From: a bacterium
Lineage (GTDB): Bacteria; UBP15; UBA6099; JAJRTR01
Assembly (NCBI GenBank): GCA_024278215.1
Contig: JAJRTR010000191.1
Coordinates: 1 to 39,713 of the forward strand
Reading direction: 5' to 3'
DNA: 39,713 bases
Of this stretch, positions 8,525-29,487 are shown piece by piece. The position numbers were made by a program, and so were the translations under genes. Position 1 is the stretch's first letter. Every line of letters starts with the position of its first letter. Below the pieces are notes generated by a model. The model worked only from the letters and a program-made list of their open reading frames with translations, ran no database searches and was not told where the DNA came from.

Positions 8525-9565
8525 CTACGGTTTGCTGTTTTTTCCGGCCCTGACGATGCCGGTGGAGATATCCTGGAACGGCTGGCGACGGACTCTGTGC
8601 GGCAGGGCCAGTTCAGCGGCCAGGTCTATGTCTTCACTTTCCACGGCGCTTCGCCCTTCATACGCGGCGATGGTTTTTGCTGTTTTCAGTGTGATGATGT
8701 CGCCCCTGTGTCCATCCACGCCTACTTCGATACAATAATTAGCTATTTCCAGCATCAGTTTTCTATCGACAGCAACCTCCGGGAACAGCGCGATCGCCTT
8801 TTTGATCTTTCCGACGACAGCTTCCGATTCTTCTTTCCAACGTTCTATGAAGTCCCGCGGATTATCGTCGAAAGAGGCCCGCCGCTCCATGACCCGGACG
8901 CGCTTTTCGGGGTCGAGAATACCTTCTATGTTCACGCAGAGGCCGAAACGGTCGAGCAACTGGGGCCTTAGTTCGCCCTCCTCGGGATTCATGGTGCCGA
9001 CCAGCGTGAAGCGCGCAGGGTGCGTGAAGGAGACACCTTCACGCTCGACAGTGTTGACCCCCATGGCGGCGGAATCGAGAAGCACGTCGACGACATGATC
9101 GTCCAGCAGATTCACTTCATCGACATAGAGGATGCCCCTGTGCGCGGCGGCGAGGATGCCGGGTTCGATGCGCTTTTCACCTTTTTTCAGGGCGTGCTCG
9201 ATGTCCATGGTTCCCACGACGCGGTCTTCGGTTGCGCCCACGGGCAGTTCCACGACACGCACTTTCCGCCGCTCGACGGGCGGCGCCTGTTTCTGTTCGA
9301 CAGCGGCCCGGCAGTCCGGGTTCACACACTCGGCGCAGATGTCTCCGCCGTGCGGTTTTCGCAATTGATAGGGACAGTTTTTCACGACGTCGATCTGCGG
9401 CAGGATGTCCGCCAGAGCGCGCACCGCCGTGGATTTCGCGGTTCCCTTTTCGCCACGGATGAGAACACCGGATATGGTTGGGTTGATGATGTTGAGGACA
9501 AGCGCGAGTTTCATTTTTTCCTGGCCGACGATGGCCGCGAACGGATAAATATGTTTTGTCTGCAT
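8525..9565 (-). CDS. chlI: ChlI/BchI-like AAA+ chelatase ATPase subunit
   Basis: [63 protein letters not shown] and DGHRGD. Start overlaps the upstream stop (TAATG). Confidence 0.92.
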
Positions 9566-11577
9566 TATGTAACGCTCATTACGATGTCAATGAGTTCTCT
9601 GGTTTTAAGTTCTTCGATTTTGAAGTAGTCGGCGCCCAGCGCCGCGGCGAGGCGGGCGGCGAGTCCGAAATGAGTGAACGACGATGTTTCTGTGTCTACG
9701 ACAATATATTTAATGCGCGGCTCGAGGAGCATATTTCCGGCGATGCGCATGATTTCGTCCTGTGGTTTGCCGTCGCCGAGCGCCACGTTGGATTTACCGT
9801 CCGTTATTATGATACAGATGGGCCCGGCAGCAGGCTCCTTGAGCAAGTGCACTTTCATGAGCCGGAATGCTTTCTGAAGCCCGCTGGAAAGCGGTGTGCG
9901 GCCCCCCACGGGAAGCTCGCGCAGCATCTTCGCGGCCAGTTCGATAGAACTTGTTGGTTGCAGCACCACCTCCGCCTCCTGTTTCCGGAAGACCACCATA
10001 GCCACGCGATCCCGCTTCTGATATGCGTCCATAAGCAATGAGAGGATAGCGCCTTTGCTTGCCACCATGCGCGAGCGCGCACCCATCGAGCCGCTGCCGT
10101 CCACGAGAAACACCAGGAAGTTGCCGACACGTTTTTCCCGGATTTTGCCCCTTATGTCCGCTTCGTGGATGACTACGGACATGCCGTTGGCCTCGCGGTA
10201 TTTCTGGAACGGAGCGGCGGCGCGCAGCGTGGCGTCCAGCGCGATATCTCCCGACGGATTCTTCAGGCTGCTCTTAACATAACGGCCCTGTTTCCGGCTT
10301 GTGCGGGTGCGCGACCTGCGTCCCGACCCGCGCCGCACCCTGCGGTCTTTCTCATGACTGAACGGCTTGACTTTGAACGTATCACCGACATCGAAAACTT
10401 TTTCCGATGCGCAGTCCGGCGGCGCGGGCGTTTGCGTATCGCCGGATTCAGCTTCTCCGGGTTCCGGCTGCCGTGTTCCCTGTTCTTCCGGGCTGGGATC
10501 CGGAGCATTCTGTTCCCCGGGGTCGGTTTGTTGCCGTTCGTCGTGTTCATGCTCATCGTGTTCATGCTTATGCTCGTGTTCATGGTCGGGAGGCGGTGGC
10601 GGCGGAGGCGCTTCCCTGCGCCTGTGCAGAAGCGCCATGGGGGCAATTTCGAGAATATCTTCCGTGGCAACATCCGAACGTCCGTTATACGCGGCCAGTG
10701 CGCACGCGGCGCGTTCCATCACAACGTCGGCGCGATGACCGGCCACATTGTTTGCCAGGCAGATTTCCGCAATAAACTTACGGGCGGTTTCGGAAAGTGC
10801 GACACTGCCGATAAGATTGCGGGCTGCCTCGATCCTGTCGATGATTTTTTTATCCTCATCGGCAAACAGGTTCCTGAACCGTTCCGGGTCGATGTCGAAC
10901 CGTTCACGCAGTTCCATAAGCTTCACGCGGTCCCGGGGGTTCTCTTCTCCGACAACAGGAACGGCCAGTCCGAAGCGGTCCAGCAACTGCGGCCTTAGTT
11001 CGCCTTCTTCGGGATTCATGGTTCCAACGAGGATGAATTGCGACGGGTGGCGCACGGAAATGCCTTCCCGCTCGACCACAATTACCCCGTTCGACGCCGC
11101 GTCGAGGATTATGTCCACGATATGATCATCGAGCAGGTTGACCTCATCCACATAGACGATGCCGCGATGCGCCCGTGCAAGCAGGCCGGGGCGGAAGCGG
11201 CGCACACCGCTTGTTACGGCAAGGCTGAAATCCATGCTGCCGAGCACCATGTCTTCCGTGGCGTTCAGCGGCAGGTCCACCACCGCCACTTTTCTTTTCG
11301 AGGTGGGCGGAGACCCGGTGTTTTCCCCGCATAATTCACACAAACCGGCCTCGTTGCCTGGTTCGCAGGAAAAAGCACAACCCCGGACGATGTCGATCTC
11401 CGGAAGCAGGGAAGCGAGCGCGCGGACTGTCGTGGACTTGGCGGTCCCCTTTTCGCCGCGCACCAGCACGCCTCCGATGTGTGGATCGACGGCGTTAAGA
11501 ACGAGCGCCAGCTTCATGGCTTCCTGGCCGACGACGGCGCTGAATGGATAATTGATCCGACCTGCTCTCTTTAACAT
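9565..11577 (-). CDS. chlD: ChlD/BchD-like chelatase subunit (AAA+ / Pro-His linker / VWA), putative cobaltochelatase-associated
   Basis: N-terminal AAA domain as in Chl[23 protein letters not shown] linker; VWA MIDAS DGSGS, GGRTPL and ITDG. Confidence 0.9.
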
Positions 11578-11586
11578 AAAGGAACC

Positions 11587-12486
11587 TCATAGATAATTCT
11601 TCGCGAAACTGTACAGCGGACGTAATGAAGACGAATAATACAGCCCGTGAAAATATAAGAGATAGATCACTTTGGCGGAAACCACGGAAACGATGATTAA
11701 AACCATGATCAGAGCCGCCGCCGTCTCCGGCATATTCAGCGATTTCGGCTTTTGAACGACGCGGGAGACCGAAGGAGAGAAACCGCGGCATTCCACGGAC
11801 AGTGCCAGGAAGCCGGATTTCCTCACAAGGTTCGCAAGGAGCGGATTCATGATGTACACGGCTGTGCGGACAGGATGGATAATACCGTATTTCAGGGCCC
11901 GGAATCCTTTTATCCGCATAGCGATGAGAATGGAGTTGACCTCTTCGAGCAGGATAGGAATGAACCGGAAAGACGTAATCAGCATAAAGGCCTGGGCATA
12001 AGGAACTCTCAAGCGGAGCATGCCCGCAAGCATGTCCCGGGGTTCGGTGGTCCACACGACAAGCATGCCGAGAGTTGTCATAACGAGAAAACGCAATCCC
12101 TGGACGATTCCATATATGAAACCCTCTTTAAAGATAAACACGCCGCCGGTCAACCGACCGGGCACGTCGGTAGCGGATGGAATGATAGTAAGAATTGCCG
12201 TTCTGGGGGTTCCGGCATAGAAGACAGCCTGGCTGAACACTGTGCCCCAGAGCGCGACGGAGAGAAGGATAAAAAGCACTTTCAGCTTCCGGGTTTCGGT
12301 TCTCGCGGCGGCGTGCAGAAGCAGCGCCAGAACGGAAAATGATCCGAGAGTAACCGGCGAGTCGATGATAACAACGAGAATGGATACACAGAACAGGCCC
12401 AGCAATTTCACACGCGCGTCGAGCCGTTTCACCGGCGACGGCGCTGTGTTGACACCAAGCAATGATTTATTCATGCGCCGCTCCAT
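11587..12486 (-). CDS. ecfT: ECF transporter transmembrane component T (EcfT/CbiQ family)
   Basis: LDARVKL, TTEPRD.....LRLRVP, FRFIPILLEE, and coupling motifs MRIKG and ECRG. Confidence 0.88.
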   Translation of the reverse strand: MERRMNKSLLGVNTAPSPVKRLDARVKLLGLFCVSILVVIIDSPVTLGSFSVLALLLHAAARTETRKLKVLFILLSVALWGTVFSQAVFYAGTPRTAILTIIPSATDVPGRLTGGVFIFKEGFIYGIVQGLRFLVMTTLGMLVVWTTEPRDMLAGMLRLRVPYAQAFMLITSFRFIPILLEEVNSILIAMRIKGFRALKYGIIHPVRTAVYIMNPLLANLVRKSGFLALSVECRGFSPSVSRVVQKPKSLNMPETAAALIMVLIIVSVVSAKVIYLLYFHGLYYSSSLRPLYSFAKNYL

Positions 12487-14171
12487 ATCGAAATAAAATC
12501 ATTCACCGTGGCTACAGGCGCGTCCACCCCCATGTTCCAGGCGATTTTCATCACGTCGCAGGGAACCAGGGCGCATTCGGGGGTGAACAACGATGGAGTG
12601 AAATAGTTTTTCGGGGTGCCGTCATAATGAATACATCCTTTTTTCATAACCAGTAGCCGCGTGGCGTGGCAGACGGCGGTGGCGAGATCGTGCGTGGAAA
12701 ACAAGAGCGTTTTCCCCATGCGCTCGAAGTGGTCCATCATCTCGCTGATATTATTCCGGTCCTGCCCCATAGTGGGTTCATCCAGGAGAATGATGTCCGG
12801 GTCCGGAGTGAGAAGAGAGGCCACAGCCGTGCGCAAGCGCTGCCCCCGGCTCAGGGCGAAGCAATAGTCGTTTTTAAGAGGTTCGATCATCATGACATCC
12901 AGAGAGGACCGGACCATGACGTCCATTTTTTCCCGGGGAACACGGCTGTTGCGCAGCGGGAATCTCAGTTCCTCGATCACCGTTTCGCGGATCAACATCA
13001 GGTCTGGATTCTGGAGCAGGAATCCCGCCCGGCTTCCGAGAACGGCACCGGGTTTCGGGACGACGCCGTCATACAGCACCCGGCCGCGCCGCGGCTTCAG
13101 AAGCCCCGCGACAAGCAGCAGCAATGTGGTCTTGCCGCAGCCGTTCGCCCCCATGACGGCAACCCGTTCGCCGGGAAAGATGTCGAGACTCAGGTTTTCA
13201 AACAGTGGTTCCGTTTTGTTATAATAAAATGTAATATTCTCGATTCCGATTTTGGGTTTGTCGCGCGAGCCATGGCCGGTTGAATTGCCCGCGCACGGCT
13301 CTTTGTCCGCCGGAGGCGGCTTTATGTTTTTTACCCGCCCGTTCTCTCTGAGCAGCGGCAGGGCGTCCGAAACGTCGAGGGGTCTCTCCTTAAAACCCAT
13401 GCGGGCGAACAGTTCCGCGCTCTGAGGCACGTTGAGGCCGAGTCGATTATAAACGGACAGATCGTCGAACGCGCGGGCCGCGTCCATATCCAGAATGATC
13501 TCACCGTTTTCCATGATCACGACACGGTCCGCAAACCCGGCGACTTCGTGGACGCGGTGCTCCACCAGGATAATCGTCTTATTGTGGTCCCTCGCGAGCA
13601 GCCCGAGGGCGTCGCGCAACGCCGCCGCACCCCGTGGGTCCATCTGCGAGAAAGGCTCGTCCATGCACAGGATGTCGTGGCCCACAGCGAGCTGGCCCGC
13701 AATGACCACGCGCTGTTTCTGACCGCCGGACAACTCGTCCGTGCGCCTGTCCAGGGCTTCCGCAAGGCCCACGCTTGCAAGCGCTTCGGCGATCAGGGAT
13801 TCTGTCACGGACTCGGGCAAGCCCCTGTTTTCCGGCCCGAACGCGACTTCGTCGCGCACTATGGACGTAAATATTTGTTCGTCGGGGTTCTGAAACACGA
13901 GCCCCACTTTTTCGGTAATACTATGAATGTCCGCACGTCTTGTATCCTTCAGGTGCCCTATCTGAACACGCCCCGTCATCACGCCTCCGGATTCATGCGG
14001 GATGATCCCGCTGAGGCATTTCATGAGCGTGCTCTTTCCGCAACCTGTGGGGCCGGTAATGAGCATAACACTGCCGTCGGGCACATCCAGACTGACGTTT
14101 TTCAACGTGGGTTCCGAACGCCCGGGGTAGGTGTACGAAAGGTTTTCTATTTTCACAAAATGATGGCTCAC
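12471..14171 (-). CDS. ECF transporter duplicated ATPase (fused EcfA-A')
   Basis: Two NBDs: GPTGCGKST / FQNPDEQ / LSGGQKQR / MDEP and GANGCGKTT / LQNPD / LSRGQR / LDEP. Confidence 0.92.
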   Translation of the reverse strand: MSHHFVKIENLSYTYPGRSEPTLKNVSLDVPDGSVMLITGPTGCGKSTLMKCLSGIIPHESGGVMTGRVQIGHLKDTRRADIHSITEKVGLVFQNPDEQIFTSIVRDEVAFGPENRGLPESVTESLIAEALASVGLAEALDRRTDELSGGQKQRVVIAGQLAVGHDILCMDEPFSQMDPRGAAALRDALGLLARDHNKTIILVEHRVHEVAGFADRVVIMENGEIILDMDAARAFDDLSVYNRLGLNVPQSAELFARMGFKERPLDVSDALPLLRENGRVKNIKPPPADKEPCAGNSTGHGSRDKPKIGIENITFYYNKTEPLFENLSLDIFPGERVAVMGANGCGKTTLLLLVAGLLKPRRGRVLYDGVVPKPGAVLGSRAGFLLQNPDLMLIRETVIEELRFPLRNSRVPREKMDVMVRSSLDVMMIEPLKNDYCFALSRGQRLRTAVASLLTPDPDIILLDEPTMGQDRNNISEMMDHFERMGKTLLFSTHDLATAVCHATRLLVMKKGCIHYDGTPKNYFTPSLFTPECALVPCDVMKIAWNMGVDAPVATVNDFISIWSGA

Positions 14172-16030
14172 TCGACCACCATCCTCAGACGTTTTCCCAT
14201 GCTAAGCCCCAGAGCCGTGCCGATAACCGTGTAGAACACACCTCCGACGAGTATATTCAAAGCGATATACCAGTCCGCATAATACAGCCGGTAGAGGAAG
14301 ACCACGGACTCCATGTTGAAGAACGTAGCCACGGACTCGGACAGGGCGAACGCCACGAACAGTCCGGCGGCACCGACACCCCGCTCCGGCCCACTGCGTG
14401 TCGCACCCGCGCCCCACAACGCCGCTTCCGCCGTCAGTGCGTGCACGGCCATCCACAATATCGATACGAGCGATAGGTTCCCAAGCAGAACCCAGGACAG
14501 CAACAGCCTCACGGCCATGACGAGAGACATGGTTCCCGGTCGCGGCACGAGCATAATCAGTGAGGTCCACAATACATACTGCACCACGCCGAAAAACAGG
14601 CCCGAGGCAAGGAAACTGAACGGCCCCAGCAGAGCCCGGAACACGTCCATAAACAGTGTGCCCGGTACATTCACAAGCACGAAGCCCACGGCGCCGTACA
14701 ATGAGATCAATACAATCCAGCGGACTTTGAAACCGCTCATTATGCTCCTGAAGCGGATAAAGAAAACGAACAGAAAAGCGCCGGCGAGTACGGCCCCGGC
14801 CACGGTTGCGACAAACGGTACAATGGGATGCTTCTCCACGCGGAAATCATGTTCACAGGTGGAGAACGGCCTATCCGCTCCCATCTGCGTCAGGGACAGC
14901 AACAGCCTGTAATCCCCCTCGCGCACGGACACGGGTTCCACGTAGACCGGAAGAACGACCTTCGTCGACGCCTCCCTTTTCACGATCACTGTCGCAAAGA
15001 CTTCCCCGAGCGGATTCACGTGCGGGTCGGGAGTAAACGCTTCGACCCGCTCCCCGCTCTCCGCGTCGACGATACATGCCTTCAGCAGAACGACGGCATC
15101 TTCGCCGAGCGTGTTTTTCACAGTGACCTGGAAAAAACCGAATGGAAGTTGTCTGAAGTTCGTTTCCCGGTATTTCTCCCCGGTAAGAATGGCCCGCAGG
15201 CGTGTCACAGTCGACAGATGCAGCGTGTTTTTTGTCAGCCTTTCGTCCGGTTCTCCTTTATCGTTCGTGGGAAACGCGACTCGTGAGACACGGATGCTCT
15301 TTCCGAGAAATTCGGAGTTCACGACCCTGATCTGAATGTTGTCCGTGTGCAAAACAGCTCCGTTCTCTGAAACCGTCATACTTATATTACGGTATTCACG
15401 TGTCGGGTTCGCCGGACTTTTCACAGTCAGTGGAATGATCCTGGAGTCATACCGGTTCGCCAGGCGCAGAGCGAATGTGCATTCCACCCGCGCGCCGGCG
15501 TTCATCAGGCAACGCCCGTCTTTCCCATCGACTGGCGAAAAACCCGCCGGGAACATTATCCGGACTGATATATCTCTTGGACTGTCCATGCTGTTCGCCA
15601 CACGAACGCTCCCCGTTATTTCCGTATCGACCGGCACGGCCACCCGCTTTGTTTCCATGCCGAACGGGAATTGAAACGCATAATAATTCTCTTTCCCGTA
15701 AACAGGAGAAACGGTGTTGTACAGGATATTCCTTTCATCCGTGTGGAGGCTGATGTGATATTCAGTTTTTTCGTTCCATTCACAGTTCACTGTTATGTGG
15801 TCATTCCTGTAATCGTGCGGAAACACAGCTCTGCCCCGGCGGTTGCCCTGTTCGTCGATGATGTCGACAGACGATATGCGGGCGGCGCGGTTCAAAACGA
15901 TGTGGACCGCGCCGCGCGAAAACGACACTGACTCGATATCAGCCGTTTTTTTCGCGCACGACCCGAAACCGGCAACGATAAATGCCATAAGGAGAATAAA
16001 TGGTTTCGCCTTCCTACCCACCGGCAACAA
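14168..16030 (-). CDS. Large membrane protein: lipoprotein-like signal, ~375-aa extracytoplasmic domain and C-terminal ECF S-component-like membrane domain
   Basis: N-terminal K/R-hydrophobic-FGS-C; ~220-aa C-terminal region with about 7 hydrophobic helices including LVPRPG. Directly upstream of ecfA-A' and ecfT (ATGA overlap). Exact start uncertain. Confidence 0.7.
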   Translation of the reverse strand: MLPVGRKAKPFILLMAFIVAGFGSCAKKTADIESVSFSRGAVHIVLNRAARISSVDIIDEQGNRRGRAVFPHDYRNDHITVNCEWNEKTEYHISLHTDERNILYNTVSPVYGKENYYAFQFPFGMETKRVAVPVDTEITGSVRVANSMDSPRDISVRIMFPAGFSPVDGKDGRCLMNAGARVECTFALRLANRYDSRIIPLTVKSPANPTREYRNISMTVSENGAVLHTDNIQIRVVNSEFLGKSIRVSRVAFPTNDKGEPDERLTKNTLHLSTVTRLRAILTGEKYRETNFRQLPFGFFQVTVKNTLGEDAVVLLKACIVDAESGERVEAFTPDPHVNPLGEVFATVIVKREASTKVVLPVYVEPVSVREGDYRLLLSLTQMGADRPFSTCEHDFRVEKHPIVPFVATVAGAVLAGAFLFVFFIRFRSIMSGFKVRWIVLISLYGAVGFVLVNVPGTLFMDVFRALLGPFSFLASGLFFGVVQYVLWTSLIMLVPRPGTMSLVMAVRLLLSWVLLGNLSLVSILWMAVHALTAEAALWGAGATRSGPERGVGAAGLFVAFALSESVATFFNMESVVFLYRLYYADWYIALNILVGGVFYTVIGTALGLSMGKRLRMVVE

Positions 16031-17534
16031 ACTTCACAGGTATGATGTGCAGGTTATGCACGCCGGTGACGGTATCGTTTTCCAGCCTGATCGGCACCTC
16101 GATACCCGCGAAATAGGCTCCTTTCGGTGAGAAACGGCCCGTGACCGATATGCCCCTCAACTGGAAGTCGCCCAGCCGCGCAACCGGCTCCGTGTTTCCA
16201 GGCTGATACTTCAGGAAATAGAAACCGGACGCCTCGAGCGTATTCTCGATGTAATTGTGATTGACGAGAATTGCAGTCAGGCCCGATCCGGGAAGCGGCG
16301 ACAACCCATCGATAGCGCCGGGCGCTTTCCATTTCCAGAGTATGTCGCCGTTGCTGTTGAAGAGGAACGCCGAATTGCTGTCCGGGTGTTCCGTGGGTGG
16401 TTCCTGCGCCGCGTCGGCCACAGTTCTTTTCGCGTATGTATTCCCGGAAACCACAAACACGGCCCCATCGTCGAACACGGTACTGTATTTGCCGCCGGCG
16501 TAGATAGGGATGCCGCTTACAGTCATCAGGGTGGTTATGTCCCTGCGCCAGAGCAGCCGCAGCGCCGGGCCTTCATCGACTGCGAAAAGGTGAAGCCGCC
16601 CGTCATTTGTGGCCGCGGCCACGAACTTGCCGTTAGGAGACACGGACAGCCCGTACCACATACTCGTGTAATCCATTATCGTCGGTTCGATACGATAAGC
16701 GTCGCTCTGTTCTCCCGTGGCGGCATTAATAAGCCGGACGGTCCCGTTTTCATATTTCTCCACGGGCGCTCCTTTCCTGCGCCAGCTCGTGTTCGCCCCG
16801 ATGATGTGTTTCAGGGGCTTGGAATAGAGAGGAAACGGCATACGGGTGTCCATGGTTTCCGTTTCGGGGAATCGCCATAGTATCTTTCCGTTGCGCGGCT
16901 CAAAGGCGTAAAGCAGTGTTTTCGTCGGATAATGAACGATCCTGCCGCCATCCGGGAGTTCGAGCATGACCCGGTTCGAATGCGTGCCGACCGCGAACAG
17001 GGTGTCTTTAGACGCTGTCAGAGAATAGACGCACGCCTGGTGTGTCCAGCGGGCAGTCTCGATATTTTCCGGGCGGCCTACATCGTCGCCCACGGCATAG
17101 ACCCATTTCAGTTTCCCGGTATTCAAATCGATGGCGTAAATGTTGCCGTCCATGCTGCATTCACCGGCGTATACTGTTCTGGAGTCCGGGGATATGGCCA
17201 CGCTGCGCCCGTAACTTTCAGGAATGTTGAAAGTCCATCTCCGCTCACCGACGGCGCTGAAAAGTTTGATCGTTTCATCGAATCCGGCCACGGCAATCCA
17301 CTTCTCATCCGCAGATACGGCAAGCGCTTCGTAGTCTTTCTTGTTCCAGTCGGTGACCGAGGGAATATCCTTCAGGGCTCCCAGTCTCACTTCGATAGGC
17401 CTGTCGGGCAGCGCCGCATTTGTTTTTTGGGATGCAGCCCCCTCGCAGCCTGTGAGCACCAGCGTCGGCGCGGCTGTCAGGGCGATCAGCAACGCGGATA
17501 GAAGGAAACGCCTTGTTTTTTTATCTGTCGTCAT
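16014..17534 (-). CDS. PQQ/WD40-like beta-propeller lipoprotein
   Basis: Lipobox LTG-C after MTTDKKTRRFLL...; repeated blades (AVSADEKWIAV, AISPDSRTVY, IDLNTGKLKW, GKILWRF, VSPNGKFVA, NGDILWKW). ATG at 17534 has a GGGAG RBS. Confidence 0.85.
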   Translation of the reverse strand: MTTDKKTRRFLLSALLIALTAAPTLVLTGCEGAASQKTNAALPDRPIEVRLGALKDIPSVTDWNKKDYEALAVSADEKWIAVAGFDETIKLFSAVGERRWTFNIPESYGRSVAISPDSRTVYAGECSMDGNIYAIDLNTGKLKWVYAVGDDVGRPENIETARWTHQACVYSLTASKDTLFAVGTHSNRVMLELPDGGRIVHYPTKTLLYAFEPRNGKILWRFPETETMDTRMPFPLYSKPLKHIIGANTSWRRKGAPVEKYENGTVRLINAATGEQSDAYRIEPTIMDYTSMWYGLSVSPNGKFVAAATNDGRLHLFAVDEGPALRLLWRRDITTLMTVSGIPIYAGGKYSTVFDDGAVFVVSGNTYAKRTVADAAQEPPTEHPDSNSAFLFNSNGDILWKWKAPGAIDGLSPLPGSGLTAILVNHNYIENTLEASGFYFLKYQPGNTEPVARLGDFQLRGISVTGRFSPKGAYFAGIEVPIRLENDTVTGVHNLHIIPVKFVAGG

Positions 17535-17542
17535 ATTTGGAA

Positions 17543-18280: not shown

Positions 18281-19203
18281 CAGTGCCCGTGTCCCCCCCT
18301 CTTTCTGCCGAGAGATCCGCGCGCGCGACGCTCGTGCGCCGCAGTGTCCTTCGCGCCCCGGTCGCGTTTCACTATGCCGTGGCCCGTCAGGTCGAGAAAT
18401 ACATCCTCGAGGTTTACCCGTCTCCTCGTCAGCGGACTGGGATGGGAGACGATGTGGCGGTCCGCCTCTTTCCGGGTCTTGAAAAACCGGCTTTTTATGG
18501 AGCCGTCCTCGAGATCATCGACCGCCCATTCTCCGAGAGTCGCCTTGAAGTTGTCCGGCGTATCTATACGGACGATCCTCCCTTTATCAATGAACGCCAC
18601 CCGCTCGCAAAGGAACTCGGCTTCCTCGATGTAATGCGTTGTGAGAAAAAGCGTTGTGCCGTGCGACTGGGCCGTTTTAATAAGACTCCAGACGCGGCGG
18701 CGGATAGCCGGATCGAGCCCTACCGTCGGTTCGTCGAGGAAAAGGAGTTCCGGCTCGTGGAGCAGCGCGCGACCGATCATGAGCCTACGCTTCATACCGC
18801 CGGAGTAATTCTTGATCTGCTCGTGAGCGCGGTCCGTGAGTTCGGCAAACTCGAGCATTTCGCCGATGCGACGCAGCCGCCTGTTTTTTCCCATACCGTA
18901 GAACCGCCCGTGGTTGTCAAGGTTTTCCCACGCCGTGAGATCGTTGTCCAGGTTGACATGCTGGTGCACTACGCCTATGCGGCGGCGCGTGGCCACGTCC
19001 CGGCGCAGCAGGTCGATTTCGTCGAGCTGCGCCCTGCCGCCGTCAGGAACAGCGAGCCCCGTTAGAACCTTGATGGCTGTGGTTTTTCCTGCGCCGTTGG
19101 GACCGAGAAAACCGAAAAGTTCCCCCTTGTCCACTTCGAGGCTCACGCCGTTGAGCGCCTGCGTTTTGCCGTAGGTTTTTGTCAGTCCCTCGATGCGCAG
19201 CAT
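18280..19203 (-). CDS. ABC transporter ATP-binding protein (DrrA/NodI-like exporter type)
   Basis: GPNGAGKTT, YSGGMKRRL, LFLDEPTVGLDP, TTHY and LEDVFL. Stop overlaps the permease start (TGATG). Confidence 0.9.
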   Translation of the reverse strand: MLRIEGLTKTYGKTQALNGVSLEVDKGELFGFLGPNGAGKTTAIKVLTGLAVPDGGRAQLDEIDLLRRDVATRRRIGVVHQHVNLDNDLTAWENLDNHGRFYGMGKNRRLRRIGEMLEFAELTDRAHEQIKNYSGGMKRRLMIGRALLHEPELLFLDEPTVGLDPAIRRRVWSLIKTAQSHGTTLFLTTHYIEEAEFLCERVAFIDKGRIVRIDTPDNFKATLGEWAVDDLEDGSIKSRFFKTRKEADRHIVSHPSPLTRRRVNLEDVFLDLTGHGIVKRDRGAKDTAAHERRARGSLGRKRGGHGH

Positions 19204-19230
19204 CAGTATCCACCTGCTCCTTTTCAATAT

Positions 19231-19264: not shown

Positions 19265-19276
19265 TGCGCGTATATA

Positions 19277-21607
19277 TCAGAATTCCAATTTCATGCCCGC
19301 GGTGAATGTGCGGCCCGGGGCAAGGTAATACTCATAGTAATCCTCGTCGAACAGGTTATCGACGTTGATGAAAAACTCTTTATCCGAATGTAGTTTGTAT
19401 ACAAACGACACGTCCACGAGATCATATTCGTCGTACTCGCCGTACACGTGGCTGTGGTTGTCCGAGTTGTCTTCGTAAGTGTGGACTTTGTCACGATGAT
19501 TCCAGTTTATGCCGAGCGAGAAGCTGTCACCGCCCCGCAACGGCAATCCGTAATCGAACCCGAGGTTATACATGAGATTCGGGTTCTGCTCCATCTCGAG
19601 GCCGACGATAGCCGGGTCGGGCGCGCTTTTCACTTTCGACATCTGACTGGTCATGTTGAAATTCGCCGTGAGCCTGTTATTGAACTTGTAGTCCGTTTCC
19701 AGCTCGATGCCGCGAATCACGACCTTGCCGAAATTCTCCTTCTGCTTCACGGTCGGTCCCGTCGAAATCGTGATATTGGAAATCATGTCCTGAAGTGAGT
19801 TCCGGAAATATGTGGCACGCATGGAAAACTTCCTGTTGCCGGGGATGAAATCGAAACCGAGGTCCCACGCGGTGTTGACTTCCGGCTTCAGCGCAGGGTT
19901 GGAGCGGTACACGGTCCCCGACGACGTTGTCCAGGTGCCGAAGAGGTCATAAGTGCCCGGGGGATTGAACGCCTGGCCGAAATTGAAGCGCCAGTTCACG
20001 TCGCCGCCCGGCTTGAACAGGAGCCCTATCTTTGGGCTGACCCGCGATTTAGTGCGTGAAGGCATGGGATAGTTCGCCGGGTCCGCCGGCACCAGCGACG
20101 TGCCCGAAGCCGTGAGCGATTCGCCGTCATATACTTTCCAGTTGTCGTATCGCAAACCCGGCGTAATTATCCAGGAACCGCCGGACGTTATTTCATCCTG
20201 CAGAAATATCGAGCGGAACCGCACCTTGCCCGCCTGCAACCTGGTCCGCTGTCCTGACCGGTTCTCATCTTTCCAGAATGCCACCTTCCACGACCCGTTA
20301 TCCAGTTCGTTTTGCCGCCATTCGAGCCCGCCGGTGAGGATGTGGGCATCCAGGTAATAATTCCCTTCGGCACGGAAATCGAGATTATCTTCTTCCCTGT
20401 AATTATGGGTTGCGGACCCGCTTGTGGGCGTGGCCGACGATGGAATACCACTGTTGTACCAGCGTTTGATCGTGCGCGTATCGAGCGAGAATCTCAAATC
20501 CGTGTTCGAGCCCGTCCGCGTGTTGTAATAGAAAGAGTAGTCGTCCCGCGCCTCGCCGCCGGGTCCTTTGATCCAGTTGCCTGTTTTGTCCGCCGATGTG
20601 ATCTTATATACATTCGTATCGCCGGGGAAACTCACATATACCGTGCCGCTCGCGCTCGGATTGCCGTTCAGGTCCGTCAGCCAACTGTGGCCCGTTTCAT
20701 ACTCGTATTCCGAATCAGAGTAGTTGTAGCGCATACCCATCTCAGTTCCGGGTTTGAATTCGTAGCTCAGGTCCAGCCGTATGTTGTCGTCTTCATTATG
20801 TCGTGCGCCAACTTCCCCGATAAGCGCGCGCTCATAATTCCCTATGGGGTTGTAAACCGCGCCCGCCGTATCCGCCGGATTGGACGTGTCCACACTGATG
20901 GTTCTGTATTTGAACTGGCTGACATACCCGTCGGTTTCCAAGCGGTTGTAGCCCAGACGCAACCCCATGCCGGAATGGAATTTTTCCGAATAGGACAGAT
21001 TGTAATTGTTCGTATTATATGTACCGAAATCAGTGTCGAGAGAAATCTTCTGTTTGCCGGGCTTTTTCGTGATGATGTTGATCACGCCGCCCATGGCGTT
21101 CGCGCCGTAAATGGCGGAATTAGGACCGCGAATCACCTCGATTCGGTCCACATCATCCAGCGGCACATTGTCAAGGATCATGCCGCCGCTGTAACCGTCG
21201 TTGAGACGCACGCCGTCGAGTAGAATCAGCGTGTGCCCCTGGTTGTCGCCGAGACCGCGCAGCCCTAGCTTGGCCGTGGTGTCGCCGGGGAACGATTTCT
21301 TGATGTACACGCCCGCCAGCCTGTCCATCACATCCTGTAAACCCTGATTCCCGGACAATGTCGTTTCGTCCATGTTCACAACCGACGAATAAAAGGATAC
21401 GTCTTCGAGCATGCGCTCCGATTTTGTGCCGGTTACTATAATCTGACCAAGATCGAAAGGCTTGTCCCGGCCGTCTTCCTCAACCGGCTGTGCGACAACT
21501 ACTTCATTCTCGTCCCCGGCAATATCCTGCGCCGCCGCGCGCGTGCAACATGCGATGCCCCAGATAAACAGAAACAGAACCATCACCACCGTATTTCCGA
21601 ATTTCAT
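19277..21607 (-). CDS. TonB-dependent outer membrane receptor
   Basis: Signal peptide; TonB-box-like DLGQIIVTG; plug motifs LRGLG..TLILLDG and RIEVIRGPNSAIYGANAMGGVINIITKK; VDNLFDEDY...GRTFTAGMKLEF with terminal Phe. Confidence 0.95.
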   Translation of the reverse strand: MKFGNTVVMVLFLFIWGIACCTRAAAQDIAGDENEVVVAQPVEEDGRDKPFDLGQIIVTGTKSERMLEDVSFYSSVVNMDETTLSGNQGLQDVMDRLAGVYIKKSFPGDTTAKLGLRGLGDNQGHTLILLDGVRLNDGYSGGMILDNVPLDDVDRIEVIRGPNSAIYGANAMGGVINIITKKPGKQKISLDTDFGTYNTNNYNLSYSEKFHSGMGLRLGYNRLETDGYVSQFKYRTISVDTSNPADTAGAVYNPIGNYERALIGEVGARHNEDDNIRLDLSYEFKPGTEMGMRYNYSDSEYEYETGHSWLTDLNGNPSASGTVYVSFPGDTNVYKITSADKTGNWIKGPGGEARDDYSFYYNTRTGSNTDLRFSLDTRTIKRWYNSGIPSSATPTSGSATHNYREEDNLDFRAEGNYYLDAHILTGGLEWRQNELDNGSWKVAFWKDENRSGQRTRLQAGKVRFRSIFLQDEITSGGSWIITPGLRYDNWKVYDGESLTASGTSLVPADPANYPMPSRTKSRVSPKIGLLFKPGGDVNWRFNFGQAFNPPGTYDLFGTWTTSSGTVYRSNPALKPEVNTAWDLGFDFIPGNRKFSMRATYFRNSLQDMISNITISTGPTVKQKENFGKVVIRGIELETDYKFNNRLTANFNMTSQMSKVKSAPDPAIVGLEMEQNPNLMYNLGFDYGLPLRGGDSFSLGINWNHRDKVHTYEDNSDNHSHVYGEYDEYDLVDVSFVYKLHSDKEFFINVDNLFDEDYYEYYLAPGRTFTAGMKLEF

Positions 21608-21692
21608 TTCACAACCTCCATATCTTTCCGAATTTTCCTCCCTGGAGTCGCCGGCCCCGTTATCTGAAACCCGCCGCGAAACGGCGAGTCAT

Positions 21693-24600
21693 TCAAAGAT
21701 TGAGTTTCCCAAGTATCGAGTCCATTTTCCCTTTCCAGGCCTCCACGTCATCCGCCGTCATCACGTCTACCGAACCGCCCTGAAACTCACCGGCCACATC
21801 GCCGATGCGGTCTTCCATCCACGCCTCGACCTCAAGATAAGCGTCCTTGAGTTTTTCGAGCATTTCCGGGTCGGGCTTCCAGATACCCCGCCCGGCGGCT
21901 TCGAGCAATCGCCTGCCGATCTCCTCCAGCGCCCACGGGTTCACTTCCTCGAACCACTTTTTCATTTCCTCGTCCAGCACAAATGTTTCGGCTACCCTGT
22001 CGTAAATCCAGTTGTCCACCTTGCCCGTGGTAGCGCCGAATCCGTACACGCGCCCGATGCGTTTGTTTAAATCGCCCGCACCCTTGTAGCCATGCTTTTT
22101 CATGCCTTCAATGTATTTCGGGTTCAGTAGTTTGGCACGCACCACACGGCGCATTTCATCCGTGAAATCCGTGACGCGGATGTTCGCCGGGTCGCGTGTG
22201 TCGCCGTAGTAGGTTTTGGGTGCCCTGCCGGAAATGGTTTTCGCCGCCACCGTCATGCCGCCGTAGTTGCTGTAGAACCCGCAACAGTTGAGAAAATCGG
22301 ACTCGTCGGAGATGTGCTTGTCGAATGTGACTTCCACGCGGCGCAGGTTGTCCACAAGTTCCTGGTGGGCTTCCACTCCATAGTTGCTTTCGCCGCCATA
22401 GGCGTAACCGTTCCAGAATACGTACACGTCGGCCAGGTCTTTTTCCGTTTTCCATGCCGAGGCGTACACCGCGAGATTCACACCCGCCCGGTAGGTGCCG
22501 GGCCTGGCACAGAATATGCGGTAACTCAGCCGCCGCAGGCTTTCCCTGTCATCCAGGGGCAGGCCGCGCTCCGCCGCCTGGTTCACGATGTGTTTGCGCA
22601 CGAAATTCCGCTCGGGCGGCTCGGCAAGCATGGCCGCCGCCTGGATAGCGCGGTCCATGTACATAATGGAATCCGGGAAGCAATCGCGAGCGATGCCGGA
22701 CACGCGGATGTTCAGGTCGATACGGGGGCGTCCGAGCTCTTCAAGCGGGATCACGTCGAACTCATCAACCTGGCCGTTCGCTTTCCAGCGTGGCCGCAGA
22801 CCCAGCAGATGCAGCATCTGCGCTATCTGCTCGCCATCGGCGCGCATGATGTCCGACGCCAGCCACACCAGCCCAACGGTCTCCGGGAAACGCCCTTCCT
22901 CATCCATATATCTTTTAAGTAACGCTTCGGCCAGGCGGATGCCCACCCGGTGCGCCGCCCTGGTGGGTATGCGCGTTGGGTCCACGTTATAGAAGTTGCG
23001 GCCCGTGGGCAGAACGTCATACCGGCCCCGCGTGATAAGGCCGGAAGGCCCCGCTGGTATATATCCGCTGCCGAGACCGTTGAGAAGCGATTCTGTTTCA
23101 AGGGAATCATCGAGACGCATGCCGATGTCTTTTACAAGCGCGGCAAACGACGCGAACCGCCCGGCCTCACCGTTTGCGGGTGCGCGTTCGAAACACTGCT
23201 CGAACACCGCGGCGTTGTCGCCGCCTTCCAGTAATGCCGATATTATTTCAATAGCTTTTTCATCCGCGTCGAAAAGAATCTCGCCGTATGTTTTTCCGCA
23301 ATTGCCCCGTGCGCCCGGCTCCCTGAGAGCACGAAGAATGTCTTCGCCCCATATATCGAAAACCAGCCGCCGCGTGCTCAGAGGGTCGTTCGAATCGAAA
23401 CGCAGGATTGAGTTCACATATTCAGCGCGCTCATCGCCTTGCGGGCGGTCACCGAATACATGCATACCGTATCGCATCTGGCTGTTGCGCACCTCGGACA
23501 GCAGTTCATGGCACCGCGTGGCCACCTCGTCGAACGATTTCGTATTCGCGTCATTTATTTCGTCCCTGAAATTGCACTTGTCGATCTGCTCCTGCACCTG
23601 GTGTTCGATCTGGTGCGCCCGCGCCGGGTCCGTGTGTTTCGCTCGCTCGTAATCGTTGAGCAGGTCTTCGAGGTCTTTGAGATCGTCGTAAGTTCCCGAT
23701 GTGGTAATCACTGTCTGCATGTGGTCCACGAGGGTAGCGTAACTGCGCCGCTTGGCGATCACACCCTCGGCGGGGTTGTCCGAGTTGTAGATGTAAAGGT
23801 GCGGCAGATTGCCGATGCTGATATCCGGCCAGCACGATGCGCTCAGACCCGCGCCCTTCCCGGGCAGAAACTCGATGTTCCCATGCGTGCCGACATGTAT
23901 CACAACATCCGCGCCGAACACGCGCTCCATCCACATATACGTGGCGATGTACTGGTGCGGCGGGGGGATGTCGGGGTCGTGGAGAATCTTGCACACCGTG
24001 CCGTCGCAGCGTGGCCCCGCGCATCCGCGCTTTGGCTGCATCATTACCAGCACAGTCCCGAAATCCAGACCGGTTATAACGAGTTTGCCGTCGTGCACCA
24101 TGCTCGGCGGCACTCCGTTCATCTCGCACCCCGGGGGGGCGCCCCAGCTTTCCACCATGCGCACGCGCGCCTTCGGGGGCAGCTCTGCAAACCACTTCTC
24201 ATATATTTCGTTATCAAGCAGCGCCAGGTGCCCTTTCTTTGAAATGATTTCCTCGACCGTGGTCCAGCGGAATTCGGCAATGGCCTTCCGCTCCAGTATC
24301 TTCCGCATCAGGGCCTCGCCAGACTCCGGGATGGCCCGCACGCCATATCCCTCGTCGCCGAGACGGCGCATCAGGCGCACCACGCTCTCTCCCGAATCCA
24401 GACCGGCGGCCCCGCCAACGTTCGCCTCCAGACCCGCACACTCGTTCTTGTGAAATACAAACACCACTTTCCGTTCGCTCACTGGTTTGCGGCTCAAAAC
24501 AATCCACTTGTGTATGCGGTCGACAACGTGTTCCAGGCGCTCGGCTATAATGTCGCGCAACTCATAAACGGTACCTGTCTTTTCATCTTCATGCTTTTCG

Positions 24601-25577
24601 CTGCACGCTGCGATAATGGGTTCGATGCTGCCCTCGAACTCGGGCATTGCGACGCAGAAACTGATTTCCGTGGTCAGGCCCTGCTCATCCTCGTCCCATT
24701 CAGATACGGACTTGCTGTATGAAACCACAGGCTTGAACACCGGCACATTCAGTTGTTTGAAAAATTCGACTGTCTGCCCGGCGGCCGTAGTGTCGGACCT
24801 GTCGGCGCGTGCCTCCCGGCCGAGAAAGAAAAAATGCAGATTGATCAGCGCATGTATGCGCGGTTCGCCCGCGGCATTCAGGAAATACTTCTTCGCGGCG
24901 CCCAGCGCGCCCAGGGAGCCGGACTCCGCATCGGACGTACCGTGACTGAAAACAGGCAGCACGCCCAGCCCTCTGCGCTCCAGCGATTCAACGAACGCCT
25001 CCTCGAGCTGCATACTCTGGTTCACGTAATCATGACGGGAAAACAGCAGCCCCACGGTCAGACCGCTCTTTAATGGATAGCCGTTCATATATTCCCGGAC
25101 AGATTCGAACACCTCGCCGCCCGGAATACGCATCACGCCCTGCCACGGCATGGGCTCGGGGTCTTCAACGGGAATGGACGGATCGAACCGGGCCGCCAGG
25201 AAATCCAGCAGCCGCCTGTAATTGTCCAGACCGCCTTCGGACAGGTACGTATATGCCGCGGCGCATATCGCTGGTTCAACCGTGGCGCTCATCCCCCACA
25301 TCGCCGGATCGAAAGATGTGGAAACAACTGTCTTGTCCGCCGCCGACAGGAGATAATCGTCAACTTCATCCCAGAACGGATCATTGGTTCTGTAAAAAAA
25401 TAAAACGTCGGAAGTCTCCGCCACCTTCTTAAAATCTTCCAGAAGATTTTCATCCGATATGATCTCTTTGTGAGAAAACACGCTCAATTCAACGTGGCTG
25501 CATTCAGACACAGCCTTCACCATCAGCGGAACATAAGAAGACCAGACAATCGCGGCTATACGAACCTTTCTATCCAT
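21693..25577 (-). CDS. cobN: CobN/ChlH-family metal chelatase large subunit
   Basis: AMPEFEG, QPKRG, LHDPDIPPPHQY, HVGTHGNIEFLPGK, EGVIAKRR, LPTGRNFY, ELGRPRID, RVSGIARD and LLNPKYIEGM. ATG at 25577 has a GGAG RBS. Confidence 0.93.
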   Translation of the reverse strand: MDRKVRIAAIVWSSYVPLMVKAVSECSHVELSVFSHKEIISDENLLEDFKKVAETSDVLFFYRTNDPFWDEVDDYLLSAADKTVVSTSFDPAMWGMSATVEPAICAAAYTYLSEGGLDNYRRLLDFLAARFDPSIPVEDPEPMPWQGVMRIPGGEVFESVREYMNGYPLKSGLTVGLLFSRHDYVNQSMQLEEAFVESLERRGLGVLPVFSHGTSDAESGSLGALGAAKKYFLNAAGEPRIHALINLHFFFLGREARADRSDTTAAGQTVEFFKQLNVPVFKPVVSYSKSVSEWDEDEQGLTTEISFCVAMPEFEGSIEPIIAACSEKHEDEKTGTVYELRDIIAERLEHVVDRIHKWIVLSRKPVSERKVVFVFHKNECAGLEANVGGAAGLDSGESVVRLMRRLGDEGYGVRAIPESGEALMRKILERKAIAEFRWTTVEEIISKKGHLALLDNEIYEKWFAELPPKARVRMVESWGAPPGCEMNGVPPSMVHDGKLVITGLDFGTVLVMMQPKRGCAGPRCDGTVCKILHDPDIPPPHQYIATYMWMERVFGADVVIHVGTHGNIEFLPGKGAGLSASCWPDISIGNLPHLYIYNSDNPAEGVIAKRRSYATLVDHMQTVITTSGTYDDLKDLEDLLNDYERAKHTDPARAHQIEHQVQEQIDKCNFRDEINDANTKSFDEVATRCHELLSEVRNSQMRYGMHVFGDRPQGDERAEYVNSILRFDSNDPLSTRRLVFDIWGEDILRALREPGARGNCGKTYGEILFDADEKAIEIISALLEGGDNAAVFEQCFERAPANGEAGRFASFAALVKDIGMRLDDSLETESLLNGLGSGYIPAGPSGLITRGRYDVLPTGRNFYNVDPTRIPTRAAHRVGIRLAEALLKRYMDEEGRFPETVGLVWLASDIMRADGEQIAQMLHLLGLRPRWKANGQVDEFDVIPLEELGRPRIDLNIRVSGIARDCFPDSIMYMDRAIQAAAMLAEPPERNFVRKHIVNQAAERGLPLDDRESLRRLSYRIFCARPGTYRAGVNLAVYASAWKTEKDLADVYVFWNGYAYGGESNYGVEAHQELVDNLRRVEVTFDKHISDESDFLNCCGFYSNYGGMTVAAKTISGRAPKTYYGDTRDPANIRVTDFTDEMRRVVRAKLLNPKYIEGMKKHGYKGAGDLNKRIGRVYGFGATTGKVDNWIYDRVAETFVLDEEMKKWFEEVNPWALEEIGRRLLEAAGRGIWKPDPEMLEKLKDAYLEVEAWMEDRIGDVAGEFQGGSVDVMTADDVEAWKGKMDSILGKLNL

Positions 25578-25603
25578 GAGAAACTCCAGAGAAATGGAAT
25601 AAC

Positions 25604-25731
25604 TTTGCCGGTAAAGGAAGAGCCGGAGAGAATCCGAGCGAACGGCCTCTCCCCGACTCCAGGAAGGCATTTGCAGCAAAGTGTGAAATATCGGCGAGGG
25701 TTACGTTTTTGATATTCGTGTTACCGGCAAA
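25604..25731 (-). ncRNA. Putative structured leader RNA upstream of cobN (unassigned family)
   Basis: Perfect 11-bp inverted repeat TTTGCCGGTAA (25604-25614) / TTACCGGCAAA (25721-25731) enclosing internal hairpins (AATATC/GATATT; GGAGAG/CTCTCC). Confidence 0.35.
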
Positions 25732-25865
25732 ACAAAAAAAATTGGTATAATAAAAGGGCTTCATCGAGAGTGTCGTTAAATTCTCAATCAGTTCATCCGG
25801 AGTTCCCATTAAACCTGTTAAACCCCTTGCGCATCTCTAAAATAGTATTACTCCCGCCCGCCGTA

Positions 25866-25892
25866 GTGCTACGTTTATGATAATAGTAACAC
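25866..25892. promoter_or_regulatory. NikR-box-like operator GTGCTAC-N13-GTAACAC
   Basis: 6/7 inverted repeat with a 13-bp AT-rich spacer, just downstream of the predicted promoter. Matches, from memory, the GTGTTAC-N13-GTAACAC consensus predicted for deltaproteobacterial NikR. Confidence 0.6.
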
Positions 25893-25904
25893 ACCGTCAC
25901 AGAT

Positions 25905-25933
25905 AACATAAGAAAAAAAATCTAAAAAGTCAA
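25905..25933 (-). promoter_or_regulatory. Sigma70-like promoter of the cobN operon
   Basis: Minus strand TTGACT (25933-25928), 17 bp spacer, TATGTT (25910-25905). Confidence 0.6.
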
Positions 25934-29481: not shown

Positions 29482-29487
29482 AACTTT

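Follow-up and report, generated by a model that had tools for sequence, protein, structure and literature searches.

A ten-gene cluster that joins a CobN-like class I chelatase to an ECF-type importer behind a NikR-type operator: a candidate system for nickel-chelate uptake

The stretch of DNA analysed here, called the window below, is positions 1 to 39,713 (39,713 nucleotides, nt) of contig JAJRTR010000191.1 (assembly GCA_024278215.1), from a bacterium of the GTDB lineage UBP15; UBA6099; JAJRTR01. It contains a cluster of genes in which the large subunit of a class I chelatase, similar to CobN, stands together with its two partner subunits, a TonB-dependent receptor, parts of an energy-coupling factor (ECF) transporter and an ATP-binding cassette (ABC) pair. 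An original prediction, made from the letters of the DNA, had described the cluster as a candidate operon for the uptake and (de)chelation of a metal-tetrapyrrole. The list of open reading frames (ORFs) contains ten ORFs on the minus strand between 8525 and 25679, and nine of the ten are named by Pfam and NCBIfam. In the order in which they would be transcribed they are:

21693..25577, minus strand: class I chelatase large subunit, CobN-like, soluble (PF02514, 1214 bits; NF004646; full ORF 21693-25679)
19277..21607, minus strand: TonB-dependent outer-membrane receptor (plug and barrel domains)
18280..19227, minus strand: ABC ATPase of the DrrA/NodI kind (Pfam, NCBIfam)
17543..18280, minus strand: ABC-2 type permease (PF01061)
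16014..17534, minus strand: beta-propeller lipoprotein with lipobox LTGC (Pfam, signal; full ORF 16014-17714)
14168..15988, minus strand: P6, with lipobox GFGSC, an immunoglobulin-like (Ig-like) ectodomain and a predicted S-component (models; 620-aa ORF 14168-16030)
12471..14171, minus strand: fused EcfA-EcfA' ATPase with two ABC domains (TIGR04520, 371.9 against a cut-off of 315; TIGR04521, 355.3 against 330)
11587..12486, minus strand: EcfT of the CbiQ family, the transmembrane coupling subunit (PF02361, 93.3 bits against a cut-off of 25)
9565..11577, minus strand: ChlD-like AAA+ and VWA subunit (TIGR02442, 789.9 against a cut-off of 779.45; VWA_2)
8525..9565, minus strand: ChlI-like AAA+ motor subunit (Mg_chelatase, AAA_lid_2; TIGR02030, 442.1, under the cut-off of 466.95)

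With refined starts the gaps between the genes are, in order, 85, 49, -1, 8, 25, -4, -16, 9 and -1 nt, so that the earlier description of ten co-oriented genes, overlapping or nearly abutting, is borne out. The start of the CobN-like gene is most likely the ATG at 25577, which has GGAG ahead of it. The list of parts given by the original prediction (TonB-dependent receptor, ECF set, three-subunit class I chelatase, ABC-2 pair) also holds at the level of Pfam and NCBIfam families, with two amendments. The presence of a lipoprotein is correct but two are found and not one, namely the propeller and P6. The ECF set is complete by family as far as EcfAA' and EcfT are concerned, while the S-component would be P6, the gene without a family, a role assigned by fold and docking predictions only. 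The TonB-dependent receptor passes no NCBIfam subfamily cut-off, the top match being the TonB-hemin subfamily (221.7 against 316.85). The ABC-2 permease and the DrrA/NodI-like ATPase have the domains expected of them and do not reach the NCBIfam subfamily cut-offs; their families suggest that the pair works as an exporter. The claim that no cob, cbi or bch gene lies in the window agrees with a Pfam scan of 20 of its ORFs, in which none was found, the ORFs beyond 33 kb being outside the scan.

A spacer of 466 nt separates the operon from the last gene of an efflux operon that is read in the same direction. The elements relevant to its control, in this spacer and elsewhere in the genome, are:

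25905..25933, minus strand: promoter-like site TTGACT-17-TATGTT (consensus scan, 9/12 matches), 13 nt upstream of the operator
25866..25892, minus strand: NikR-type operator GTGTTAC-N13-GTAGCAC, with one mismatch to the delta-proteobacterial consensus
C34:3477-4343 (L007) and C37:33609-34269 (L012), same genome: loci of two weaker NikR-like sites

The NikR-like operator of the original prediction was thus found. It is the sole match in the window with no more than one mismatch, and none of 100 shuffles gave any. Two promoter-like sites were observed in the region against a shuffle mean of 0.9; the second, from the same consensus scan, lies at 25776-25747 within the leader of about 290 nt (25577-25865, minus strand) that separates the NikR box from the start of CobN. 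A family search found one NikR gene in the genome. One of the two weaker sites, each with two mismatches, is placed about 73 nt upstream of a gene pair encoding a DUF4198 (NikK-like) protein and a porin-like protein; the other, reversed, precedes an orphan CbiM-family gene by about 50 nt. The NikR gene and these weaker sites add weight to the case for the operator. No Rfam family reaches its gathering score in the window and no riboswitch is seen at E values up to 1 in 25500-26200. Two cobalamin riboswitches are present in the genome, both on other contigs, so B12 control exists in this cell yet is absent at the operon.

The large subunit aligns with PF02514 over profile positions 2-1089 of 1090, which places it in the CobN/ChlH superfamily. 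It passes NF004646 (PRK05989.2-4, 'cobaltochelatase subunit CobN') with 1565.1 bits against a cut-off of 1468, although the name of that model is an annotation and not a tested function, and the model is also passed by 2 of 14 control genomes. The model for the aerobic cobaltochelatase CobN, TIGR02257, is failed (778.6 against 822.05), which supports the original prediction, and the Mg-chelatase ChlH/BchH model, TIGR02025, is failed too (746 against a cut-off of 829). The nearest solved structure is CobN of M. tuberculosis, 7c6o (E 2e-172, residues 131-1289 aligned); of the other solved full-length subfamilies ChlH gives 1.7e-146 and HmuS, the most distant of the three, 7e-114. The motif HxG(T/A)HG of domain III, which belongs to the macrocycle cleft and is found throughout the superfamily (PMC12583661), is present as HVGTHG.

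The CobN-like protein departs from its characterised relatives in domain V, where the aligned stretch reads NCCGFYSNYGG and the corresponding residues are DSDDYFQYHGG in 7c6o, DSDDYYQFEGG in 9fpc and DVSHYFDSD in ChlH. In HmuS the motif is LSLDHxxEFMGG with Asp-1208, His-1209 and Glu-1212, in a stretch that holds the cation ligands (PMC12583661); by the spacing of that motif the window stretch SDFLNCCGFYSNYGG aligns there, with Gly at the position of His-1209. The Cys-Cys pair was found in all 115 motif-covering sequences among the 120 best homologues, whose hosts include Desulfobacca, Desulfobacula, Desulforhabdus, Desulfocicer, Ammonifex, Desulfofundulus and Methanocella, the homologue of Methanocella conradii being 50% identical. 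It takes the form of two sub-motifs, DFLxCCG..NYGGM in the group of the window and DLFGCCCYFGTHGG. CobN genes that accompany importer cassettes in a B12 context keep SSDD or NSDD, with a single Cys in L019 and L145b. In a FastTree of 59 sequences, built without characterised outgroup sequences, the Cys-Cys clades split from these B12-context genes with starred (100) support. Judged from the alignments, Cys-Cys is a clade signature. The window protein has no membrane anchor or transmembrane segment (maximum 19-residue hydropathy 1.44) and is nowhere rich in Met (5 at most per 40 residues); it is therefore not an HmuS. At one further locus (L145, 7938-18910) two CobN paralogues surround a single ChlI-ChlD pair, one with Cys-Cys and the other with a single Cys (SCTDYYNYYGG) like the gene of L019.

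Recurrence of the operator was examined in relatives of the CobN-like gene. A sample of 301 genomes was taken from the phylum (labelled Thermodesulfobacteriota) of L004, the closest syntenic operon with upstream DNA. A CobN homologue at E ≤1e-100 was present in 52 of these genomes, and the loci of the best 20 full-length matches, with up to about 20 kb around each (312 kb in total), were inspected. The primary CobN gene carries Cys-Cys in 20/20. NikR boxes with no more than one mismatch precede related CobN clusters at six of the 20 loci, where iid (independent, identically distributed) letters would be expected to give 0.19 such boxes and 0.004 perfect ones in 312 kb. Four of these, in L134, L135, L136 and L138, are perfect boxes of the reversed form GTAACAC-N13-GTGTTAC directly upstream of CobN, about 40 nt or less from its start. 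L140 has a one-mismatch reversed box about 245 nt upstream, and in L137 a one-mismatch forward box stands ahead of the gene order TBDR-propeller-CobN-P6, TBDR being the TonB-dependent receptor. The reversed form has been published for nikMLKQO of Desulfotalea. In addition, a metagenome locus with propeller, P6 and EcfAA (L017) has a two-mismatch box that coincides in part with its promoter region. Similar operators thus recur before related clusters in other lineages, and about five independent lineages bear a box (the window, L134-138, L140, L137 and L017), not nine, because the perfect boxes come from close relatives.

The companions of CobN in the 20 loci are ChlI (15), ChlD (15), a TonB receptor (12), an ABC-2 permease (7), P6 (1) and a propeller (1). 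Loci without the ECF cassette have an importer of the metal-chelate kind, consisting of the TonB-dependent receptor, Peripla_BP_2, FecCD and an ATPase. The ECF cassette of the window thus takes the place of the BtuFCD-like importer used by its relatives. Homologues of the ABC-2 pair in these relatives are 35-51% identical, and ATPase homologues of 45-51% adjoin Cys-Cys CobN genes. Because they recur in that position, the ABC-2 pair can be counted as part of the chelatase module.

P6 has no match in Pfam or NCBIfam, and a search of PDB sequences with a P6 profile gave no hit either. P6 begins with a lipobox signal; beyond it the models place three Ig-like beta-sandwiches on the outer side of the membrane and seven helices in a domain at the C-terminus. 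For the ectodomain the predicted local distance difference test (pLDDT), averaged in blocks, is mostly 80-90 over residues ~20-240 and lower beyond, and Foldseek matches it to generic Ig-like folds. In a first model from 11 sequences the membrane domain stayed below a pLDDT of 50. When the C-terminal 221 residues were modelled from 140 sequences, pLDDT rose to 95.6 with a predicted template modelling score (pTM) of 0.90. The best Foldseek match of this domain is an ECF S-component, 5edl (E 2.9e-3, template modelling scores 0.58/0.64), followed by CbiM, NikM, RibU and ThiT. Docking of the P6 membrane domain on EcfT was predicted at 0.68, the best control giving 0.00, with at least 90% agreement of contacts between runs and a partner pLDDT of at least 78; the mark used for docking is reached by 58/80 solved complexes and by 2/110 mismatched pairs. 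On these models P6 is predicted to be an ECF S-component to which one further helix and a periplasmic ectodomain with a lipid anchor have been added. To our knowledge no ECF transporter has been described in which the S-component is fused to an ectodomain and partnered by a propeller, and such an arrangement would be an unusual ECF subclass. A profile of the propeller retrieved generic WD40, PQQ and BamB propellers from the PDB, and BtuG, whose role the propeller might conceivably share, was absent among the 60 matches listed. The conserved residues of P6 and of the propeller form no obvious tetrapyrrole signature.

A word-based search found 11 close relatives of P6, one of them from Desulfobacca acetoxidans, a cultured species that has Cys-Cys CobN genes as well; the CobN is also present in Desulfobacula phenolica and Desulforhabdus amnigena. 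Species genomes yielded two loci with synteny. In one of these, L004, the order is TBDR-CobN-propeller-P6-EcfAA-EcfT-ChlD-ChlI, with an EcfT that is 71% identical and with no ABC-2 pair. Searched with a profile, a set of 1.84 billion cluster representatives gave 513 members of the P6 family, and a metagenome scan yielded 306 stretches, some from human-gut assemblies. In 83 P6-bearing loci, many of them on contigs that end short, EcfAA accompanies P6 in 80, EcfT in 71, the propeller, a regular companion of the cassette, in 66, and CobN and ChlD in 43 each.

The genome assembly is 95% complete and has a single PF02514 gene by family search. Family searches of the genome did not find CbiK, CbiD, CbiC, CbiB or HemB/ALAD, and there is therefore no evident endogenous tetrapyrrole or corrin pathway for the chelatase to serve. 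In this respect the original prediction is supported: the genes have no role in B12 or bacteriochlorophyll biosynthesis. From its gene content the cell appears to make no tetrapyrroles itself, and it is a probable B12 auxotroph, CbiB not being found and the riboswitches being present. The lineage is thinly sampled: of the 60 nearest genomes one belongs to the same family and 11 to the same order, the remainder sharing the domain only. The genome of the same family (G001) has the order propeller-P6-like-EcfT with a P6 identity of just 27-31%.

Given these results, we consider that the cell responds to nickel starvation by importing a chelate of nickel, which is probably tetrapyrrole-like, and that an ATP-driven machine frees the nickel in the cytoplasm; we put the chance that this account is right at about even. 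The list of parts, the operator with its recurrence ahead of related clusters, the missing biosynthetic context, the Cys-Cys signature and the S-component fold come from the computation, whereas we infer that the metal is nickel, that the reaction runs towards de-chelation, what kind of cargo is carried and that the ABC-2 pair exports. When nickel is sufficient, NikR would bind the operator, which starts 13 nt past the -10 hexamer, and silence the operon. When nickel is scarce, a route over both membranes for a nickel-bearing chelate would be produced. The TonB-dependent receptor would pass the chelate over the outer membrane, its capture in the periplasm would fall to the propeller lipoprotein together with the Ig-like P6 ectodomain, and the S-component of P6 with EcfT and EcfAA' would move it to the cytoplasm. 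There the soluble Cys-Cys CobN-like subunit, driven by the ChlI/ChlD AAA+ motor, would release nickel from the chelate, and the spent ligand would probably be removed by the ABC-2 pair. The first interpretation is partly supported by what was found, and the operon is best seen as a variant of chelatase-coupled metal-tetrapyrrole uptake systems.

Several observations weigh against nickel-chelate uptake. Two NikR sites with no more than one mismatch exist in the 4.5 Mb of the genome where an iid model expects 1.4 per orientation, and the consensus, GTGTTAC-N13/14-GTAACAC, was derived for delta-proteobacteria (PMC545781) and may not be that of the host lineage; the box alone is thus suggestive but not decisive. 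No box with no more than one mismatch was found in 14/20 of the phylum loci, some of which end short upstream, and L004 has no box within three mismatches. The four genomes with perfect boxes are closely related in the FastTree. For P6, the E value of the match to 5edl is borderline, and a docking pass is a likeness and not a proof because solved ECF complexes exist. A NiFe-hydrogenase large subunit was not found in the genome and no nickel enzyme was identified, other nickel enzymes being outside the search. De-chelation within the superfamily has been demonstrated for HmuS alone, and His-1209 of HmuS has no counterpart here. Finally, the evidence from relatives of the P6/ECF/propeller cassette leads towards cobalt or corrinoids rather than nickel, which keeps such a role alive for the importer family.

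Known systems offer partial parallels for nickel-chelate uptake. The closest functional precedent appears to be HmuYRSTUV of the Bacteroidota (HmuS, PDB 9d26; PMC12583661), which likewise has a TonB receptor, a protein of the CobN/ChlH superfamily and AAA+/VWA partners in one operon, shares HxG(T/A)HG, and wins a metal from an imported metallo-tetrapyrrole, a purpose proposed by analogy for the window. The differences are that control here is by a NikR-type operator rather than by iron, that the large subunit is soluble, lacks the anchor and the Met-rich insertion and has Cys-Cys instead of LSLDHxxEFMGG, and that an ECF importer is proposed to move the cargo to the cytoplasm. The analogy with Hmu drawn by the original prediction therefore stands for function, while the sequence features specific to HmuS are absent. 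The aerobic CobN-CobS-CobT enzyme (7c6o, 9uk9; bioRxiv 10.64898/2026.07.21.739949) shares the plan of a large substrate subunit, an AAA+ motor and a VWA adaptor, whereas the partners in the window are of the ChlI/ChlD type, Cys-Cys replaces DSDD and no corrin pathway was found in the genome.

A second set of parallels concerns the pairing of nickel and cobalt. NikMNQO/CbiMNQO and the delta-proteobacterial NikR regulon (PMC545781; 5x3x, 4m58) share with the window the operator consensus and an ECF-type importer under its control, and the modelled P6 membrane domain has CbiM and NikM among its closest matches by fold. P6 is set apart from CbiM and NikM by the lack of sequence similarity (no Pfam match) and by two additions, one helix and an ectodomain of about 370 residues that has a lipid anchor, and the window importer further differs from NikMNQO/CbiMNQO in being partnered by a propeller lipoprotein and coupled to a class I chelatase. 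NikMNQO and CbiMNQO are paired nickel (NikR) and cobalt (B12 riboswitch) versions, and the importer family with its CobN/ChlID module is split in the same way, with cobalt or corrinoid in one branch and NikR in another. The B12-regulated CobN/ChlID clusters, namely operon-2 of Dehalobacter restrictus (PMC4285132) and L028, L067 and L068, can by analogy be regarded as the cobalt counterpart. They follow the same logic of an importer with CobN and ChlI/ChlD outside biosynthesis, and the three riboswitch-led loci have the same P6-EcfAA-EcfT-propeller cassette family as the window, but they combine a cobalamin riboswitch, a cbi operon or a CbiZ setting with an SSDD CobN where the window combines NikR-like control with Cys-Cys.

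What the nickel chelate would be is a separate matter. A tetrapyrrole-like cargo is favoured because members of the superfamily with known substrates all act on tetrapyrroles (PMC12583661), because the cleft motif is kept, because both types of importer are of kinds tied to B12 or chelates, and because the cell appears to make no tetrapyrrole itself. By analogy, such a cargo is most likely, and F430, which fits the methanogen-associated relatives, is possible. As general background, and not as a result of this analysis, Syntrophobacterales and Desulfobacca are members of methanogenic communities. A bolder version of the account is rather unlikely on present evidence. In it the host, unable to make tetrapyrroles, would share its habitat with methanogens and under nickel starvation would take up their F430, one of its breakdown products or another nickel porphyrinoid, through a TonB receptor and a novel ECF importer with a propeller partner and an S-component that bears its own periplasmic capture domain; the Cys-Cys chelatase would then act as an ATP-driven nickel de-chelatase. 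If it were true, all NF004646 'CobN' proteins of sulfate reducers, clostridia and methanogens would be nickel-tetrapyrrole enzymes.

The same parts could also run in the opposite direction. Nickel is well bound by thiolates, so from general coordination chemistry the Cys-Cys pair would suit nickel binding, and CobN with ChlI/ChlD might insert scarce nickel into an imported macrocycle that is metal-free or wrongly metallated, or into another acceptor, with the transporters bringing in ligand or metal. We know of no nickel-tetrapyrrole enzyme in such bacteria, HemB and the corrin genes were not found and so no endogenous macrocycle is available, and a repressor acting at plentiful nickel suits acquisition better than the assembly of a cofactor. 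The characterised class I Mg and Co chelatases do insert their metal with ATP (bioRxiv 10.64898/2026.07.21.739949). The subfamily also occurs in methanogens, in Methanocella conradii for example, and class I homologues there were once proposed as nickel chelatases (PMC3087415); the nickel chelatase of F430 synthesis is, however, the class II enzyme CfbA (PMC8179277; bioRxiv 10.64898/2026.07.21.739949). On balance nickel insertion is doubtful.

Alternatively the cargo might be a nickelophore or a nickel-peptide, with the CobN/ChlID machine re-purposed for stripping metal from a chelate other than a tetrapyrrole. What speaks for nickel control applies equally to this proposal, the TonB receptor and Peripla_BP_2/FecCD importers of the relatives are of a general metal-chelate kind, and the ligand is identified by nothing here, the conserved residues of P6 and the propeller included. 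It conflicts with the substrates known for the superfamily, all tetrapyrroles (PMC12583661), with the retention of the macrocycle-cleft motif as HVGTHG, and with the ties of the relatives of the importer cassette to B12, itself a tetrapyrrole. We hold a cargo of this kind to be unlikely.

The ties to B12 bear most directly on a further explanation, that the operon salvages corrinoid or cobalt like the B12-regulated CobN/ChlID clusters and that the NikR-like box is fortuitous or reflects cross-talk between nickel and cobalt. Among 33 further loci scanned, cobalamin riboswitches stand ahead of the cassette or its receptor in three, L028, L067 and L068; none was found in the window, L003, L004 or the other 30. 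In L068 the cassette is flanked by cbiK on one side and by cbiD-cbiL-cbiG on the other, and in L019 CbiZ is found beside CobN. Operon-2 of D. restrictus, which encodes transporters, two CbiZ, CobN and Mg-chelatase subunits, responds to corrinoid starvation with an average 46-fold increase in its proteins (PMC4285132), and the host of the window is itself a probable B12 auxotroph. These relatives are distant, P6 being just 25-35% identical to the P6 of B12-context cassettes. Against salvage, the operon lacks the kind of riboswitch that the genome uses at two other places, the B12-context CobN proteins keep the acidic SSDD where the clade of the window has Cys-Cys, members of that clade are preceded elsewhere by perfect NikR boxes, and salvage of cobinamide would be incomplete as CbiB was not found. 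Corrinoid salvage is accordingly rated as quite improbable. Harvesting of haem iron in the manner of Hmu is the least convincing explanation and is very improbable, since the similar layout of receptor, CobN-like protein and AAA+/VWA proteins (PMC12583661), the top match of the receptor to the TonB-hemin subfamily, under its cut-off, and a cell that makes no haem precursors (HemB not found) are set against the distance to HmuS (7e-114 as compared with 2e-172 for CobN and 2e-146 for ChlH), Gly at the His-1209 position by motif spacing, the lack of an N-terminal membrane anchor and of a Met-rich stretch, and an operator of the NikR type.

If nickel-chelate uptake is correct, the window would encode possibly the first nickel-handling class I chelatase, nickel chelation being attributed in the literature consulted to class II enzymes only (PMC8179277; bioRxiv 10.64898/2026.07.21.739949). 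The CobN look-alikes of anaerobes and methanogens are described as a large family with no known function (PMC12583661). The recurrence of the NikR operator, the invariant Cys-Cys pair and the presence of chelate importers where tetrapyrrole synthesis is missing together give a testable nickel hypothesis for that family. Should the cargo be a nickel tetrapyrrole, syntrophic or fermenting bacteria would have a route by which to draw nickel from the cofactors of methanogens. A search of the literature on CobN chelatases linked to NikR or nickel, on F430 uptake through TonB receptors and on ECF-CobN associations found no description of such a system, supplementary tables not being covered.

The surroundings of the operon contain further genes. 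Downstream, an ABC ATPase of the Opp/Dpp/Nik type (ABC_tran and oligo_HPY) is encoded at 7351-8502 on the minus strand, and a TTG start would place it 22 nt past chlI; a Pfam scan of the window ORFs gave no permease or binding protein near it. It is followed by a fusion of a 4Fe-4S ferredoxin with a nitroreductase at 6349-7173, also on the minus strand. Either the ATPase or the fusion could be an eleventh gene of the operon or a supplier of reductant. Directly upstream, at 26146-32903 on the minus strand, is a complete efflux operon of the resistance-nodulation-division (RND) type with the order TetR-OEP-HlyD-AcrB. After its acrB-like gene an inverted repeat, ACGACAGGCG-TAT-CGCCTGTCGT, at 25957-25979 (minus strand) looks like the terminator of this operon, although it is absent from the list given by a terminator scan of the region.

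Elsewhere in the genome, the orphan CbiM-family gene that follows the reversed NikR-like site is itself followed by a gene for a protein with a macroglobulin-like domain, and no CbiQ or CbiO is nearby. The idea that the ECF module of the operon is the only one in the cell was abandoned, since contig C206 has a second module, CbiQ with one ATPase, next to thiamine genes. One of the two cobalamin riboswitches (C194:12325-16677, L151) is followed by a 663-aa protein without a Pfam family and then by a TonB-dependent receptor, which may form a B12 capture pair. Among the more distant clusters, those of the human-gut type have, next to CobN, a radical SAM protein of 343-365 aa. It is placed between CobN and ChlI in L025 and before CobN in L019, both identified by Pfam; in L024 and L067 its presence was deduced from ORFs of like size and position together with a tally of four radical SAM matches. 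L025 (43-7017) also encodes nitrogenase-like (Oxidored_nitro) and Peripla_BP_2 proteins upstream. These companions of CobN suggest tetrapyrrole-modifying chemistry in the human-gut type clusters.

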